NCBI GenBank assembly: GCA_947482115.1
Contig: CANKII010000002.1
Location: 424,137 to 488,136 of the forward strand
DNA length: 64,000 nt
From: Fibrobacterota bacterium
GTDB taxonomy: Bacteria > Fibrobacterota > Fibrobacteria > UBA11236
Direction of reading: 5' to 3'
Below are positions 56,418 to 64,000 of the stretch, piece by piece; position 1 is the first letter of the stretch; every line of letters starts with the position of its first letter. The position numbers and the translations under genes were made by a program. Under the pieces are notes generated by a model. The model was not told the origin of the DNA. It ran no database searches and saw only the letters and a program-made list of their open reading frames with translations.

Positions 56418-59400
56418 TTACCGCGTGAACATCATGGACAGGTGTTTGTCTTCCACCTGAATATCCAACACGTAGGTTCCTTGCGGCAGAATCACCTTGG
56501 AGATGTCCACGAAATTTCTCCCGGAGTTTCGGATGCCTTCGGATACGTTGGCCATCAGGCGTCCCCTGAAGTCCGTCACGGAAATTTTTATGCGCGCCTT
56601 GTGAAGCAAATCGAATCCGATTTCACCGTCACGACCGATTTCCAGATCGCGCAAGCCCCGCTTCGCTGTAGTATTCCGGATCAAGGTCGGTGCCCTTAAA
56701 ATTCCACCGGTGCCGGAACCGGTTTCAAATCCCGCAGAATACGCGGTGTCCACGGTGGGAAAGCAAATGGAATAAAGATCCCTCTTGGAGCCGCTGGTTT
56801 GGGGAAGCCAGGTCAATCCGCCGTTCACGGTTTTGAGGATGACGCCATACCCGCCGGCCGCATAGCCCGTTTTGACATCGGTGAATCTCACGCTGTACAG
56901 GGTGGAATGGATCCCGCTGTTCAATGCCGTCCACGTATTTCCCGAATCCGAAGTTTTAAGAATGGTTCCACCGGTTCCCACGGCATAACCGATGTCGGCG
57001 GACGGAAAATGAATGGAGAACAGGGATTTCACTTTGGCCCCTGTCTTGAGAGTCCAGACGGTTCCTCCATTCTTCGTTTGGAGAATGGTTCCGCCTTCCC
57101 CCACGGCGAAACCCGTGCTGTCATTGTTAAAGAAAACAGATGTCAGATACTTTGAGGTGCCGCTGGTTTGAAGGCTCCAGCTCAAGCCGCCATCCTGACT
57201 TTTGATGATGGCGCCGCCGTATCCCACGGAATAGCCCACGTCGTGATTTGGAAAATGGATCGAATACAGCCAATGCGCGCTGTTGTCATTTCCCCATGCC
57301 GGAGTCCATGTAACTCCGCCGTTAATCGTTCTGTACACGCTTCCCTGTACACCTCCGCCTTTGCCCACGGCAAAACCGGTGTTGGCATCGGTAAAGTGGA
57401 CACCATACAAGGTGTTTCTGCGGTCGGCGGTCTGGGGATTCCACGTGACGCCCGCGTCTGTTGTTTTGGAGATGGTGCCGCCGCTTCCCACTGCATAACC
57501 CGTATTCGCATTCGTGAAATACACGGATTGCATCGCGACTGGTGTGGTGGAGATTTCATTCCATGAAAGGGTGGGTACAATCACCGAGATGATTAGAACA
57601 TTCGTGGTGGAACCCTGGCTGTTGCTGGCAGTGATGGTGTAATAGTTGCCTCCTTCACTGGACAGGGTCGGAACTCCGGAGATGATGCCCGTCAGGCTGT
57701 TGATGGAGAGCCCGGGTGGCAGGGAAGGGGAGACAGAATAATGGGTGACTGTGCCGGTGACAGTGGGCGAGTCATTCATGATGGTTTTGCCGACTGTAAA
57801 CGTTGCGGGATTCTGGCTGTAGGAAAGTCCGCCCGGCGGAAGACTGTTCACGGTGATGTTCACGATCGCCGTCGTCGAACCTCCGCCATTGGTGGCGGTG
57901 ACGGTGTAATTCGCAGCAGCAGTAAAGGTGGTGGTAACGCCGGAAATGACACCGGTGGAAGTGTTGAGGGAAAGTCCTGCGGGAAGCGTCGGGCTCACGG
58001 AGTAACTGGTGACGGTGCCCGTGACCGTCGGAACATTCGGCGTGATGGTGGTACCCAAGGTGTAAGTGACGGGAGTTGTATAGAGCAGGTTGGAAGGTGC
58101 GGCATTGTTCACCGTGATATTCACAATGGCTGTGGTGGAGCCTCCGCCATTGGTGGCGGTGACGGTGTAATTCGCAGCTCCAGCCAAAGCCGAGGGAACT
58201 CCGGAAATGACACCGGTGGAAGTGTTGAGAGAAAGTCCTGTGGGTAAGGTTGGACCCACAGAATAGCTGGCAACAGTTCCAGTGACCGTCGGCGTATTAG
58301 CGGTGATCGCCGAACCCAAGGTGTAAGTGACAGGCGTGGTATAAAGCAGACCGGAAGGCGCGGCATTATTCACGGTGATATTCACCGTGGCGGTGGTGAA
58401 GCCTCCAATGTTGGTGGCGGTCACAACGTAATTCGTTGCAGTGGCTAAAGCGGAAGGAACCCCGGAAATGACACCGGTGGAAATGTTGAGGGAAAGTCCT
58501 GCTGGCAATGCCGGACTGACGGAATAACTGGCAACGGTTCCCGTGACCGTGGGCGTGTTGGCGGTGATGGCCGTACCCAAAGTGTAGGTGACTGGCGTGG
58601 CATAGGTGAGGTTGGAAGGCGCGGCATTGTTCACCGTAATATTCACGGTGGCGATTGTCGAGCCGCTGCCATTGGTGGCCGTGATGATGTAATTCGCTGC
58701 GGCAGCCAAAGCCGTGGGAGCGCCGGATATCACACCCGTGGTGGCGCTGAGTGAGAGGCCCGCAGGCAAAGCCGGACTTACGGAATAACTGGTAACGGTT
58801 CCCGTGACCGTAGGCGTATTGGGATTGATGTCGGTACCCAAGGTGTACGTGACGGGAGTGGTATAAGCAAGGTTTGTGGGCGGTGCATTGTTCACGGTGA
58901 TGTTCACGATGGCCGTTGTGGATCCTCCACCATTGGAGGCGGTGACGGTGTAATTCGCAGCCGCCACCAAAGCCGTGGGAGTTCCGGAAATCACACCGGT
59001 GGAAGTATTGAGGGTAAGACCCGCGGGCAAAGGCGGACTCACGGAATAACTGGCGACGGTTCCCGTAACGGTTGGCGTATTGGGATTGATGGCCGCGTTG
59101 AGAGTGTAGGTGACGGGAGTGACATACATGAGATTGGTGGGCGGTGCATTGTTCACGGTGATGTTCACCGTCGCTGTGATCGAACCGCCAAAGTTGGCCG
59201 CCGTGACGATGTAATTGGAAGCGGCGACGGCCACCGTCGGCGTGCCGGAAATAATGCCGCTGCTGGCATGGATCCCGAGACCTTTGGGCAACGCCGGGCT
59301 CACGGAGTAAGTGACATTGATTGTGCCTCCCCCCAAAGTCGGGACGTTGGGGTTGATGGGGGCGTTAATGGTGTAGATGACGGGCGTGTTGTAATAGAGG

Positions 59401-60818
59401 CTCGTGGGCGGTTGCATCACCGTAATGGTGAATGGGAGTGAAAGCGAGGTCATGCCCACGCTGTTGTGCGCGGTAATGGTTTCTGCATAGCTACCGGTCG
59501 TGGTGGGTCGTCCGGTGATAATCCCTGTCACGGTATCCATGGTGAGGCCCGGAGGCAATGGGGCGGACAGAGAGAAGCGGGTGACCACGCCGTTGTATTT
59601 GGGGACATTCGGGGGAATGAGGGAATCCTTGTAGTAAGCTCCGTTATGCGAATAAGTGAGGACGGATGGCGGGTTCAGTAAAGCAGGTCTGAATTTGACC
59701 AGGGAATCTGCTCGGGGTTGCTGGTTCTTGTAGCTCAACCGGATCCAGTCGGGGGATCGCGCCACCTTGGACAATTCCCCCTCGTCAAACTTCCCGCAAA
59801 AATATGCGTCCGTCGAAAAGGCGGGTCTTCCCAAATACCCGTTGCTGCGCAACGTGTCCTTGATGTTGTAAATAAAACTGCCACCCCCGATTTTATTGCC
59901 GTCCTTGTAAAGCGTGGCGGTGAGGTTGGCGAAGGTGACGCTGTATTGGTGCCACTCGTTCGGTATCAGTGCTCCACTAGCGGAGGCTCCCTGCAAGATG
60001 GTTCCCGTGGGTCCGCCGGCCTGCAACCAGTTGATATCCGTGCTGGTCAGCGACTGGTTGAATTTGATGTTGTCCTGCGGAAGATTGGATCCCGGCGCAT
60101 TGAACACCTCGAAGAAAGATTCGTTGGGCTGTCCGGCGATGTTGGTGGGATACATCCACACCGAATAGGTGAAGCCGGTGGTGAAGGTTTTGTAGCCGCT
60201 GCCGATGTCGAAATACTGGTTGGTTCCATTGAGGGTGTCGGCCCAGCCGATGACGCCAGTCCGGCCCGCATTGGCAATGGTCAAATTCGCAGGTGTCGCG
60301 ACATTGCCTCCAGCCACCGCGTTGGGTCTCGCCGTGCTTGCCGATATTCCGCTGGGCTCCACTCCCAGATGCCAGACGGAATGGAATCCATTGGCGGAGT
60401 CGAACACGGCGCGCGGGTTCGAGCTGTCTCCGGCGGCGCTCTTTCCCCAGTACATGCGAATGCTGCGTGCGGTCAGTCCGGTGTCATTTCCATACACCGT
60501 ATCCGGCAAAACCCAAATCTCCGCCACCTGCTGGCCTTTGCTCCAACGCTCGATCTGGTAGGGAAGATGTATGGCTGCACTCGAGGCTCTGGAGAAACGG
60601 ATGTCCCTGCCATTGCTGTCGGCCGTCTGCGAGAAATCGAAATTGGTGGACTTGAGACGGATGAGGATCGGAATCTTTGCGACGTTGGCGGTGACTCCGG
60701 CTGTTCTGCTGTCAAAACTGATGTTCTTGTAATACGACCATTGGCTGTAAGTGTCCGCAGCAGACGCTGCGGTGATCGCAGATATCAGAACGGCTAAAAA
60801 GACAGATTTTCTGTCCAT
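56418..60818 (-). CDS. Giant secreted surface protein: DUF2341 + LamG-like lectin + about 9 Ig-like (putative Ig/cadherin-like) repeats + Ycf48/BNR-like propeller + T9SS tail
   Basis: 1466 aa. The N-terminus W.YYKNISF...........IPILIRL....FDFS....NGRDIRF......L.YQIE.W......IWV matches DUF2341. It continues with a LamG-like segment (..WHQYSVTF....LYKDG), about 78-aa repeats (P..L.Y..PVTYTLG..I..N.PTVTG.V.SYSVSP.LPAGLSLN..TG.ISG.P), propeller blades (GGTI.KT.DGG.TW) and a C-terminal ..LPQGTYVLDIQVEDKHLSMMFTR. Confidence 0.85.
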   Translation of the reverse strand: MDRKSVFLAVLISAITAASAADTYSQWSYYKNISFDSRTAGVTANVAKIPILIRLKSTNFDFSQTADSNGRDIRFSRASSAAIHLPYQIERWSKGQQVAEIWVLPDTVYGNDTGLTARSIRMYWGKSAAGDSSNPRAVFDSANGFHSVWHLGVEPSGISASTARPNAVAGGNVATPANLTIANAGRTGVIGWADTLNGTNQYFDIGSGYKTFTTGFTYSVWMYPTNIAGQPNESFFEVFNAPGSNLPQDNIKFNQSLTSTDINWLQAGGPTGTILQGASASGALIPNEWHQYSVTFANLTATLYKDGNKIGGGSFIYNIKDTLRSNGYLGRPAFSTDAYFCGKFDEGELSKVARSPDWIRLSYKNQQPRADSLVKFRPALLNPPSVLTYSHNGAYYKDSLIPPNVPKYNGVVTRFSLSAPLPPGLTMDTVTGIITGRPTTTGSYAETITAHNSVGMTSLSLPFTITVMQPPTSLYYNTPVIYTINAPINPNVPTLGGGTINVTYSVSPALPKGLGIHASSGIISGTPTVAVAASNYIVTAANFGGSITATVNITVNNAPPTNLMYVTPVTYTLNAAINPNTPTVTGTVASYSVSPPLPAGLTLNTSTGVISGTPTALVAAANYTVTASNGGGSTTAIVNITVNNAPPTNLAYTTPVTYTLGTDINPNTPTVTGTVTSYSVSPALPAGLSLSATTGVISGAPTALAAAANYIITATNGSGSTIATVNITVNNAAPSNLTYATPVTYTLGTAITANTPTVTGTVASYSVSPALPAGLSLNISTGVISGVPSALATATNYVVTATNIGGFTTATVNITVNNAAPSGLLYTTPVTYTLGSAITANTPTVTGTVASYSVGPTLPTGLSLNTSTGVISGVPSALAGAANYTVTATNGGGSTTAIVNITVNNAAPSNLLYTTPVTYTLGTTITPNVPTVTGTVTSYSVSPTLPAGLSLNTSTGVISGVTTTFTAAANYTVTATNGGGSTTAIVNITVNSLPPGGLSYSQNPATFTVGKTIMNDSPTVTGTVTHYSVSPSLPPGLSINSLTGIISGVPTLSSEGGNYYTITASNSQGSTTNVLIISVIVPTLSWNEISTTPVAMQSVYFTNANTGYAVGSGGTISKTTDAGVTWNPQTADRRNTLYGVHFTDANTGFAVGKGGGVQGSVYRTINGGVTWTPAWGNDNSAHWLYSIHFPNHDVGYSVGYGGAIIKSQDGGLSWSLQTSGTSKYLTSVFFNNDSTGFAVGEGGTILQTKNGGTVWTLKTGAKVKSLFSIHFPSADIGYAVGTGGTILKTSDSGNTWTALNSGIHSTLYSVRFTDVKTGYAAGGYGVILKTVNGGLTWLPQTSGSKRDLYSICFPTVDTAYSAGFETGSGTGGILRAPTLIRNTTAKRGLRDLEIGRDGEIGFDLLHKARIKISVTDFRGRLMANVSEGIRNSGRNFVDISKVILPQGTYVLDIQVEDKHLSMMFTR
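57582..59672 (-). repeat. Tandem coding repeats (about 234 bp, about 9 units) inside the giant gene
   Basis: The central units are near-identical at the protein level (NAAPSNL.YTTPVTYTLGT.IT.N.PTVTGTV.SYSVSP.LPAGLSLNTSTGVISG.P.ALA.AANYTVTATNGGGSTTAIVNITV). Confidence 0.85.
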
Positions 60819-61621: not shown

Positions 61622-62185
61622 ATGCGCGACTATTTTTATGAAAAATTTCCTTCGCAATTTTCCAGTATTGCCACTCAACGTCCGAACGGCACTGTCCGTG
61701 GACACATCCTGGCAGACCCGTCCGTAATCTTCTTTGGTGGGGCTGATTGGAAGAATGTTGCAAAGGATCTTAACGCGATACCCATGTCGGATCGATCTCG
61801 ATTCGTCTTCGCTTTGTTTATGGTGGTCTTGACGGATCAAGCGTTATATGCGCACTTCCGCGACTCATATGATGCATGGCGAAGGAGAACAAACTTTCCC
61901 AAGTTTGGCTGGTCGGGCTTTGGTCCCCACAACGAAAATCCTTTCAAAATCCTCTGGGCCCCAGAGCGAGAGGGGTTAATCGACAGCAAGGAATTTCTTG
62001 GGGCGATCCCCGAATTCGTGAGGTTTTTTATGGATGAAACGACTTCTTGTTTTCGCCAATACCTTCCGGAAGTGGACCTGCTGGCATTCTTTAATGCGAT
62101 CAAAATCGATAGTGGATACACCTTTCATGAGGGTGAGATCGTCTCTCGAGTTAAGGAGGAATTTGAACTCCTAACAAACGGCTGA
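61622..62185 (+). CDS. Hypothetical 187-aa protein in the lower-GC segment
   Basis: Clean ORF convergent with 62196-63284 (10-nt gap). No signal peptide and no recognised motif. Confidence 0.55.
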   Translation: MRDYFYEKFPSQFSSIATQRPNGTVRGHILADPSVIFFGGADWKNVAKDLNAIPMSDRSRFVFALFMVVLTDQALYAHFRDSYDAWRRRTNFPKFGWSGFGPHNENPFKILWAPEREGLIDSKEFLGAIPEFVRFFMDETTSCFRQYLPEVDLLAFFNAIKIDSGYTFHEGEIVSRVKEEFELLTNG

Positions 62186-62195
62186 ATGGAGGGCT

Positions 62196-63284
62196 TCACT
62201 CTTTCGCTAGACAGCAATTGCTGGGATCGACTGGCGCAAGGCAGATACATCTCCCAGTAGGAAGCAAAGGAAATATTGCGGCGCGATCGATATCGGAGCG
62301 AAAATCAAGACTATATCTGATGATCGTCTGACAAATCTTCCTAAGGGCAAGTTCTTCCGCTTTTAATTTTCCTGAAGTATAAGCCCCGAATATGAACGCA
62401 TATCTTTGCATTAAGCTGAGTGTTTTTTCTGTGGCCATCCGCAATTCGCGATAATCTTCTGACCAGTCTGAGGAATGAACAGGATGCCAAGCTATTTCGG
62501 AAATGTGTAAGTGCGGATGAGCTGTAGAAGGTGCCACTTGTTGTTCAACTTCCATGAAAGCCCCGCGATTGGGATGGACAAACTCTGAAAGAAAGGTGTA
62601 TAAACTTCCAAAATCGACATGACTTAGTGGTTCGAAATTTCGTACAGCATCTTCGATAGATGCTAGTAGTTCACCAATTGAATCCTTTCGATCTCGAAAA
62701 TCAGCTATGTCTGAAAAGCGAATGTCGGCTCTATCATAAGGCTTGAACTCTCCAGTTTCGATTAAATGGATCCAGTCCACGCCCGTTCTTTCTGCTCGTT
62801 CCCAAAGGGATTTTAATAAATATGGTGTTTTGTCAAACACTTCAGTTGGGTATCTGCCGGCACGGCATTCCTTTTCCAAGGATTTGAAAAGTTGCCCTCC
62901 CTGAGTAGAAACAACATTTGCCACCTTAGTGCATATCCCGCAAACCTCCAAGAGTAGTCGAGTATTGTAAGCGCGCCATCTAATTCGATCTCGTTCGCGA
63001 AATGAATTTAGAGCATCAACAATTGTTGTTGCAACTCTGTATCGCTGTCTACGAATTAATTCAGCGCTACCCGCAATGGCAAGCAAATCTCGTGTGAAAT
63101 CCAAGAGGCGATCTCCGGTATGCTCAGATACCAAATGGCCTATTTTCAGAGCACGAGGTTCCGAATCAAGCCAGCCACAAGAATCTTTCATCAGCGTATG
63201 AAAGCTTGAGGGTTCGAACCGCAGGAGTGTAGCGACTTGATCAAAGGAGTATAGCGTATTTGAATTAGCATTTGTGCGTTGCAT
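62196..63284 (-). CDS. Hypothetical 362-aa protein downstream of the brxL-like gene
   Basis: Strong SD (GGAGGTGG) 5 nt upstream of ATG 63284. Helical protein with no recognised family. Contains RNFEPLSH (an Rx6H string) and FVHPNRG. Confidence 0.65.
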   Translation of the reverse strand: MQRTNANSNTLYSFDQVATLLRFEPSSFHTLMKDSCGWLDSEPRALKIGHLVSEHTGDRLLDFTRDLLAIAGSAELIRRQRYRVATTIVDALNSFRERDRIRWRAYNTRLLLEVCGICTKVANVVSTQGGQLFKSLEKECRAGRYPTEVFDKTPYLLKSLWERAERTGVDWIHLIETGEFKPYDRADIRFSDIADFRDRKDSIGELLASIEDAVRNFEPLSHVDFGSLYTFLSEFVHPNRGAFMEVEQQVAPSTAHPHLHISEIAWHPVHSSDWSEDYRELRMATEKTLSLMQRYAFIFGAYTSGKLKAEELALRKICQTIIRYSLDFRSDIDRAAIFPLLPTGRCICLAPVDPSNCCLAKE

Positions 63285-63429
63285 TACACCACCTCCAGTT
63301 CCTAGAGCTCTACCGCCACCAGATGCCCACCCTGAATCAACTCCTGAAACTTATCATCCAACATTCGCGCAATCCTCGGATCTTTTACCAATAATCCCGC
63401 TTCAATGTTCCGGCGTTGAGCCGCTTCGG

Positions 63430-64000
63430 TCAAATTTGCAGAGCTTTTAGCAACGCATCACGGGCGTCCAAGTAGTAGTGGATGGTAACCTTAGCTGCGA
63501 GATCGTCGGGCAGGTCGTTCAATTGCCTTCGACTGCTGATTGGCATGAGGATGCTAGCCGCACCTTTTTCAATGGCAGTTTCAACAACTGCCACCGGATT
63601 GAAGATAGTTTCAATGGAACCCCCAAGGTTCAAACCTCCCGTGACTGCAAGACCGCCTTTAATGCTTTTCTGAAGTAGTGAAGAACAAAGGGCGAGTAAT
63701 ACGCCAACGCCAACAGAAGCACCGCTCTTAGCACTGTCAAAGGCACGCAGTTGAACTGAAAATTCGTGTTGACGAGGTTCGCGATCCCCAACAAGCTCCT
63801 TTGCACGCGAATAGAGATTCTGTTCAGCGCAACGGACACTTTCCTTGAAGGGTGGTGAAGGCGGTTGGTTTAAAATCTTAACCCCGGCACCAGGCCCACC
63901 TGTAATATCCACCCGGTACAAACCCGTGTTTTCTTCACCGCCACCGGGCGCAATGACCCAGACCTGCCCGGGCGGAAGAGGATCGCTTCCAATGCTGTTT
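63430..64000 (-). CDS. brxL: BrxL-like Lon-protease-domain protein, C-terminal part (5' end off-window)
   Basis: The minus-strand ORF is open to the window edge. The sequence ..EFSVQLRAFDSAKSGASVGVGVLLALCSSLLQKSIKGGLAVTGGLNLGGSIETIFNPVAVVETAIEKGAASILMPISSRRQLNDLP..L..K..IHYY.DA.DALLKAL follows the Lon_C-like C-terminal pattern I associate with BREX BrxL (TIGR02688-type). Confidence 0.6.
   Translation of the reverse strand, partial: NSIGSDPLPPGQVWVIAPGGGEENTGLYRVDITGGPGAGVKILNQPPSPPFKESVRCAEQNLYSRAKELVGDREPRQHEFSVQLRAFDSAKSGASVGVGVLLALCSSLLQKSIKGGLAVTGGLNLGGSIETIFNPVAVVETAIEKGAASILMPISSRRQLNDLPDDLAAKVTIHYYLDARDALLKALQI

Follow-up and report, generated by a model that had tools for sequence, protein, structure and literature searches.

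A window of 64,000 nucleotides (positions 424137 to 488136 of contig C2, CANKII010000002.1) was analysed from the genome of a Fibrobacterota bacterium, a 2.7-Mb assembly of 15 contigs with a guanine-plus-cytosine (GC) content of 52.5%. The subject of the analysis is a gene near the end of the window that encodes a protein of 362 residues, here called P0001, and that follows brxL, the last gene of a bacteriophage exclusion (BREX) operon. P0001 is a real, intact and maintained protein-coding gene whose composition is foreign to its host and to the adjoining BREX operon alike, and its family is ultra-rare, with 1.84 billion cluster representatives yielding three full-length lineages. It behaves as a self-contained, horizontally moving single-gene module and not as a BREX subunit. 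We tentatively favour the explanation that P0001 is a stand-alone accessory defence protein, either a nucleic-acid-binding factor or an effector-sensor of backup or abortive type, carried as mobile cargo of the slot 3' of BREX.

The reading frame of P0001 is uninterrupted from its ATG start over all 362 codons and the opposite strand holds no open reading frame (ORF) of at least 60 residues within it, in agreement with a sequence-only reading of this DNA that had described a long, clean ORF. The same reading had credited the gene with the strongest Shine-Dalgarno sequence of its neighbourhood, and indeed neither the six genes of BREX nor any other neighbour of P0001 has a comparable one; the spacing it gave, GGAGGTGG-N5, was however off by one base, as the upstream sequence GGAGGTGGTGTA-ATG is parsed either as GGAGGTG-N5-ATG or as GGAGGTGG-N4. 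Genome-wide, and with crude start calls, GGAGG occurs at -20 to -4 of about 4% of long ORFs and GGAGGT before 0.8% of them; no BREX gene is preceded by GGAGG. The host genome rarely uses a strong Shine-Dalgarno sequence and the foreign P0001 has GGAGGTG; in its Planctomycetota homologue P0006 a similar motif, GAGGTGG, stands 7 nt ahead of the ATG (L001 9988-9994). The GC content of P0001 is 44.3% and its GC at third codon positions (GC3) is 36%, compared to a GC3 of 53-60% for brxL, pglZ, pglX and brxC. The expected absence of a transmembrane helix was borne out, as no transmembrane-like segment was found and the highest Kyte-Doolittle value of any 19-mer is 1.26. That the protein is mostly helical, as had also been proposed, is suggested by AlphaFold models of low confidence and by these only.

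An exhaustive phmmer search of the 1.84 billion cluster representatives returned six proteins. Two are full-length homologues, P0005 (365 aa) and P0006 (362 aa), which are 48-49% identical to P0001 over 96% of the length; two are pieces of a P0001 allele split by a nonsense mutation, and two are P0006-like fragments. The fragments, P0009 and P0010, are close to P0006 over part of their length, while their remaining residues fall outside the family in a frameshift-like manner, and they could derive from a pseudogenised copy or from an error-prone assembly of the Planctomycetota homologue. No further homologue was found by a word-indexed protein search, by a profile search or by a scan of one genome per species (185,579 species), and scans of JGI metagenomes and IMG/VR viral contigs added none. 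As the searches gave two full-length homologues plus fragments, our alignment (A1) is limited to P0001, P0005 and P0006; its mean column identity is 66%, with long invariant blocks (LWERAERTG-DW, ETGE, Y-RAD-SD-ADFR, FLSEF-HP-GAF-E-E, HPHL and LPTGRC-CL-V-P-CC). Searches of Pfam, NCBIfam, PADLOC and PHROG with P0001, whole and in pieces, returned nothing usable, and sequence and profile searches of the PDB with the whole protein, the N-terminus and the core returned nothing below E 0.8. The protein can be placed in no family, in line with its description as an orphan in the sequence-only reading, and no match to a metabolic or housekeeping family emerged.

The neighbourhoods of the homologues bear directly on how P0001 is to be understood. 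P0006 comes from a metagenome-assembled genome (MAG) of the Planctomycetota, and the contig of P0005 carries DUF1559 and N_methyl genes, which we take to be typical of the same phylum. No BREX genes are present within 8-10 kb on each side of either homologue (L001, L002), an all-against-all comparison of ORFs found no neighbour common to the three loci, and a tblastx comparison of the flanks was empty. Compiled in this way, the homologue neighbourhoods, lacking both BREX and a common neighbour, indicate that P0001 is a self-contained single-gene module. P0006 adjoins an ISL3 transposase, and an HNH nuclease and the PADLOC candidate PDC-M63A are 1.6-3.6 kb away from P0005. Both homologous genes have a GC content of 56% in loci of 60-65%, and in all three hosts the GC of the gene is below that of its locus. 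The start of P0006 overlaps the stop of an unrelated ORF of 150 aa (ATGA; L001 9552-10004), which suggests translational coupling at that locus; this ORF has no counterpart in the window or in L002.

In its own genome, P0001 is co-oriented with brxL, as the sequence-only reading had noted: the full 683-aa product of that gene matches the PADLOC BrxL model at 4e-289, and its stop codon lies 145 nt upstream of P0001 on the same strand. This operon, brxA-B-C-pglX-pglZ-brxL (C2:487566-500091), makes up a complete type 1 BREX, with very strong PADLOC matches for all six genes. A consensus scan of the minus strand of the spacer between brxL and P0001 found no terminator-like hairpin or promoter-like site, and Rfam gave no match at the spacer or locus; as the spacer has no terminator-like site, transcriptional read-through from brxL into P0001 is possible. 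BREX, P0001 and P0003, a neighbouring convergent ORF of 187 aa, are absent from all 11 genomes of the same genus, and all 11 share, as a core gene, one of 323 aa that lies upstream of brxA, with synteny ending directly after it, which places P0001 in a strain-specific island. P0001 was likewise absent from all 60 related genomes searched. No flanking repeats were found around the P0001 cassette.

The position downstream of brxL appears to be a variable accessory slot, as it is occupied by different, unrelated genes in five further genomes from this class (L020-L024). In the closest BREX, with a brxL 66% identical, an AAA_14/DUF4143 ATPase follows brxL, and the other occupants are DUF4365 together with a CoiA-like protein, a convergent N6/N4 DNA methylase, a ResIII fragment and an ORF without an assigned family; the post-brxL genes of these related loci are mostly of nucleic-acid or defence type. 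The co-orientation, the distance of 145 nt and the terminator-free spacer could suggest that P0001 is instead a dedicated BREX accessory, i.e. a regulator or extra subunit with a role like that of BrxR or of embedded backup effectors, and this would agree with its linkage to this BREX at every assembly place shown for the organism and with a single variant contig that carries stop codons in both brxL and P0001. We regard such a dedicated role as very unlikely. P0005 and P0006 have no BREX neighbours, the closest BREX has the unrelated ATPase in the position of P0001, PADLOC assigns P0001 to 0 families up to E 1 as against strong matches for the six neighbouring BREX genes, and the GC3 of P0001 differs from that of the operon by about 20 points.

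The gene is stable in the natural populations surveyed. The exact P0001 protein was found on 22 contigs of the public collection and in 40 blocks of the assembly index, the arrangement brxL-P0001-P0003 is the same at every indexed place shown, and P0001 DNA is 100% identical in eight of eight lake or freshwater metagenome runs (three studies, dated 2018-2023). The variant contig (L018; ENA KAVA23-1 scaffold_90814), which stems from a further sample of the lake series, is 1693 bp long and 99.8% identical to window positions 62012-63704, with three single-nucleotide polymorphisms: S601* in brxL (window 63680), Y155* in P0001 (window 62820) and a synonymous change (63625). Intact alleles of both brxL and P0001 were present in each of the eight runs examined, and L018 may represent loss of function of the whole locus in a minor natural lineage, or an assembly artefact.

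The alignment of the three proteins allowed us to examine two strings that the sequence-only reading had singled out, RNFEPLSH (residues 215-222) and the Cys-rich C-terminus CICLAPVDPSNCC (residues 346-358), both of which are present in P0001. The second gained support: C346, C348, C357 and C358 are invariant in both homologues, and the C-terminal Cys4 knuckle is predicted from its sequence to probably bind metal. The first did not. RNFEPLSH had been proposed as the Rx4-6H motif of a HEPN protein, on the understanding that its absence from homologues would speak against the idea, and R215, N216 and H222 are replaced by K/A, Q/E and E/S in the homologues (KQYGT-GE and AEFGPPHS). The HEPN idea fails because the R and H of this string are not kept. 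Nor does A1 contain a conserved Rx4-6H anywhere, as the invariant H50, H237, H256 and H258 have no conserved Arg 5-7 residues upstream, and no HEPN family was matched in Pfam up to E 10 (three members), in PADLOC even at that threshold, or in PDB sequence and profile searches, although a crystal structure of the HEPN protein HepS has been published. It is true that P0001 contains R215-x6-H222, that standalone HEPN proteins are common beside BREX (PMC12839542) and that solo HEPN defence proteins exist (PMC13043305); even so, it is highly improbable that P0001 is a canonical HEPN ribonuclease with RNFEPLSH as its motif and HepS as its model.

Among the other conserved residues, the motif H256-P-H258 is invariant and, by inference from sequence, is a putative metal or catalytic site. 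At the N-terminus, HTH_AsnC, HTH_24, HTH_Tnp_4 and PCI match P0005 at sub-threshold values (E 0.05-0.2), P0001 and P0006 gave no match to a helix-turn-helix (HTH) family, and a PDB profile search with the N-terminus was empty.

A different lead comes from the uncharacterised Pfam family DUF5677 (PF18928). It touches P0006 only, with no match in P0001 or P0005, in the helix YAFLSEFVHP at 11.7 bits (E 0.27; gathering threshold 27.1 bits). From 11 distinct DUF5677 proteins in 12 genomes of the same phylum, we derived a signature of R-x3-E followed, after about 100-110 residues, by Y-x3-Y-x3-S-x3-H, in which R and H are invariant and E, Y and S are near-invariant. A1 keeps R109, E113, Y229, S233 and H237 in all three proteins, with F or W at position 225, and the residues of the signature, a pattern defined post hoc, are thus present. 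Of the 2938 ORFs of the genome, 7 (0.24%) contain the composite pattern, as do 0.7% of shuffled P0001 sequences and 8 of the 11 DUF5677 proteins. P0001 could therefore be a far-diverged member of DUF5677, a family of low-GC, mobile single-gene cargo often found in defence slots, a possibility that overlaps with our favoured explanation and that we hold somewhat more doubtfully: the Pfam match of P0006 lies exactly on the signature helix, hhalign places the same helix (P 0.02-0.03), and every residue of the signature (R, E, aromatic, Y, S, H) is invariant, with the order kept and the distances comparable. However, the Pfam score is below the cut-off; hhalign of the P0001 family against DUF5677 at three settings reached a P of 0.02-0.04 and a probability of 1.4-2.5%, aligning the S-x3-H helix and not the R-x3-E motifs; a hidden Markov model (HMM) derived from DUF5677 found nothing among all ORFs of the genome, and the A1 profile found nothing in the 12 DUF5677-bearing genomes; and the pattern was chosen after both families had been seen. 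Because the Pfam, HMM and hhalign results are non-significant and the pattern is post hoc, we keep DUF5677 as a lead and do not claim membership. Should the resemblance prove genuine, it would connect an ultra-rare protein with an uncharacterised family that is very widespread, and indicate residues that can be tested.

These results allow us to propose how P0001 may work as a stand-alone accessory defence protein. It would be a horizontally mobile cargo gene of the defence island, and its product would most likely act alone, either by binding nucleic acid or as an effector-sensor of backup or abortive type. The putative N-terminal DNA-binding segment and the basic patch RRQRYR are candidate working parts, and the helical core, with the invariant R109, E113, Y229, S233, H237, H256 and H258 and many Asp and Glu residues, may form an active or sensing site whose polar constellation resembles the signature of DUF5677. 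The C-terminal Cys4 knuckle would bind metal. The sequence-only reading had called P0001 a candidate effector or sensor beside brxL; an orphan-like gene in the position of BREX accessory or backup genes is consistent with this, whereas a BREX-specific role is weakened by homologues without BREX, the lack of a common neighbour and a composition unlike that of the operon, and what stands is a positional hypothesis.

A number of observations weigh against a defence role for P0001, beginning with the DUF5677 comparisons, which by hhalign and by HMM searches in both directions were non-significant and which relied on a pattern picked with both families in view. A DUF5677 member tested in Enterococcus showed no anti-phage activity (PMC12632615), although the family is enriched on contigs with defence markers (PMC12632615). 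There is no statistically significant homology and no functional or structural evidence for any activity of P0001, and the defence role rests on association, at one clear locus (BREX) and one mild one (HNH and PDC-M63A). AlphaFold2 run on A1 gave predicted local distance difference test (pLDDT) values of 37 with the whole protein and 46.6 with residues 95-362, and Foldseek with these low-confidence models returned generic helical bundles of the PDB at E >1, and for these reasons we claim no fold. No RNA runs containing P0001 were found, and the premature stop in L018 makes the gene dispensable at least in that variant.

Part of the same evidence would fit a cargo gene unconnected to defence, i.e. 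a DNA-binding or metal- or redox-sensing regulator, or the degraded leftover of a mobile element, that came to the edge of the BREX island by chance. The weak HTH-like N-terminus, the basic patch and the Cys4 cluster would suit a regulator, P0005 and P0006 are not beside recognisable complete defence systems, one of them adjoins the ISL3 transposase, the composition of P0001 is unlike that of BREX, and a nonsense allele exists in nature. Yet the P0001 locus has no recombinase, transposase or flanking repeats, there is no conserved target operon or partner for a regulator to act on, and the many invariant Asp, Glu and His residues look more like those of an enzyme than of a regulator, and we consider chance cargo of this kind rather unlikely. 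A stronger form of the defence explanation, which we think quite improbable as a whole, is that P0001 founds an unrecognised, ultra-rare, stand-alone immune family in the BREX 3' slot, with an HTH-like head, a helical core and a Cys4 knuckle, in which R109/E113, Y229/S233/H237 and H256/H258 would make up a catalytic or sensing centre with a non-HEPN type of active site shared distantly with DUF5677. If true, this would give the first mechanistic handle on DUF5677-like domains. As the evidence is positional, the present value of P0001 as a stand-alone defence protein is that of a cheap candidate for cloning and not of a discovery. The features on which the analysis draws are collected in Table 1.

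Table 1 Features of P0001 and its surroundings, in positions of the window.
Feature	Position	Strand	Basis
P0001 ORF, 362 aa, soluble, probably all-helical, ultra-rare family	62196..63284	-	translation, homologues, GC
Shine-Dalgarno GGAGGTG, 5 nt before the P0001 ATG	63290..63296	-	sequence; GGAGGT upstream of 0.8% of the genome's long ORFs
N-terminal segment, about residues 12-45, weak HTH resemblance	63150..63251	-	sub-threshold Pfam, P0005 only
Basic patch RRQRYR, residues 78-83	63036..63053	-	R78, R79, Q80, R81 and R83 invariant in A1
R109-LLL-E113 (R-x3-E), predicted helix	62946..62960	-	invariant in A1
Codon Y155 (TAT), TAG stop in L018	62820..62822	-	contig comparison
RNFEPLSH, residues 215-222, candidate HEPN string	62619..62642	-	R, N and H substituted in both homologues
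F225-x3-Y229-x3-S233-x3-H237 helix (FGSLYTFLSEFVH)	62574..62612	-	Y, S and H invariant; position 225 aromatic (F/W)
H256-P-H258 (HPHL), predicted loop	62511..62519	-	invariant in A1
Cys4 cluster C346-x-C348-x8-C357-C358, after invariant LPTGR	62211..62249	-	four Cys invariant
Spacer from brxL stop to P0001 start, 145 nt	63285..63429	-	consensus scan, Rfam
brxL 3' end, last gene of a complete type 1 BREX running beyond the window	63430..64000	-	PADLOC
P0003, convergent 187-aa ORF, same low-GC tail, not a conserved partner	61622..62185	+	ORF list, homologue search

P0003, whose stop lies 10 nt from that of P0001, was rejected as a partner gene, as no P0003 homologue adjoins or is paired with a P0001 homologue. 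It is missing from all 40 relatives searched and has homologues elsewhere in 73 clusters, a small uncharacterised family without a Pfam match, whose members include proteins of Rosistilla ulvae (Planctomycetota) and of a Burkholderiaceae MAG. One P0003 homologue directly follows a recBCD operon and another is near a reverse transcriptase. A gene of 418 aa convergent with a P0003 homologue proved to be unrelated. Within the BREX operon, the longest brxC ORF (L003 10089-13670, minus strand) encodes 1193 aa and overlaps brxB by 148 nt; the PADLOC BrxC model begins at residue 49 and the gene is called with 1145 aa in other assemblies, and the true start is for these reasons probably the downstream one. 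Elsewhere in the window, a repeat-rich adhesin gene of 1466 aa (56418-60818) is called as two ORFs of 176 and 1299 aa in a lake metagenome (L043 3339-7732), which suggests a frameshift or repeat-number variant of that population, or an assembly problem with near-identical repeats.

The comparison with known systems shows where P0001 may belong and where it departs from them. HepS, which the Salmonella prophage Gifsy-1 encodes, is a solo HEPN protein of abortive infection with a canonical and mutationally validated R100-x4-H105 (PMC13043305). Like P0001, it is accessory cargo that consists of one helical protein with no partner gene and could combine sensing and action; P0001, however, has no conserved Rx4-6H and no similarity to a PDB chain, and HepS is a conceptual precedent for P0001, not a relative. 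DUF5677 is similar to P0001 in the shared residues of R-x3-E and, about 110-125 residues further on, aromatic-x3-Y-x3-S-x3-H, in the predicted all-helical nature of both and in their being low-GC single-gene cargo near defence genes; it differs in that it includes neither the additional N-terminal region of P0001 nor its Cys4 tail at the C-terminus, and none of Pfam, HMMER and hhalign finds the similarity significant. The regulator BrxR is encoded upstream of BREX and has wHTH-WYL-WCX domains (PMC9122589). P0001 resembles BrxR and the WYL regulators as a small non-core gene on a BREX operon that may have an N-terminal DNA-binding segment, but it lies downstream of BREX and has no WYL or PADLOC match. 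Another close system is BrxU, a GmrSD-type enzyme of a BREX island (PMC8565348); P0001 gave no match to a recognised nuclease superfamily. P0001 also shares its setting with the auxiliary genes of BREX at large, in that it adjoins and is co-oriented with a type 1 core and the contents of the slot vary by genome. The restriction mechanism of BREX is, to our knowledge, still not fully understood. A survey has found BREX core loci to be flanked by diverse auxiliary or backup effectors, in accord with the variable slot described above, and has proposed these flanking effectors as part of how BREX works (PMC12839542). Known auxiliaries are members of the recognised nuclease superfamilies HNH, HKD, PD-(D/E)xK, OLD/TOPRIM, HEPN, PIN and Schlafen; P0001 has a match to none of these, and its homologues show no linkage to BREX. 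As a gene that flanks BREX and yet stands outside all catalogued effector superfamilies, P0001 is a candidate for a new type of effector or sensor.

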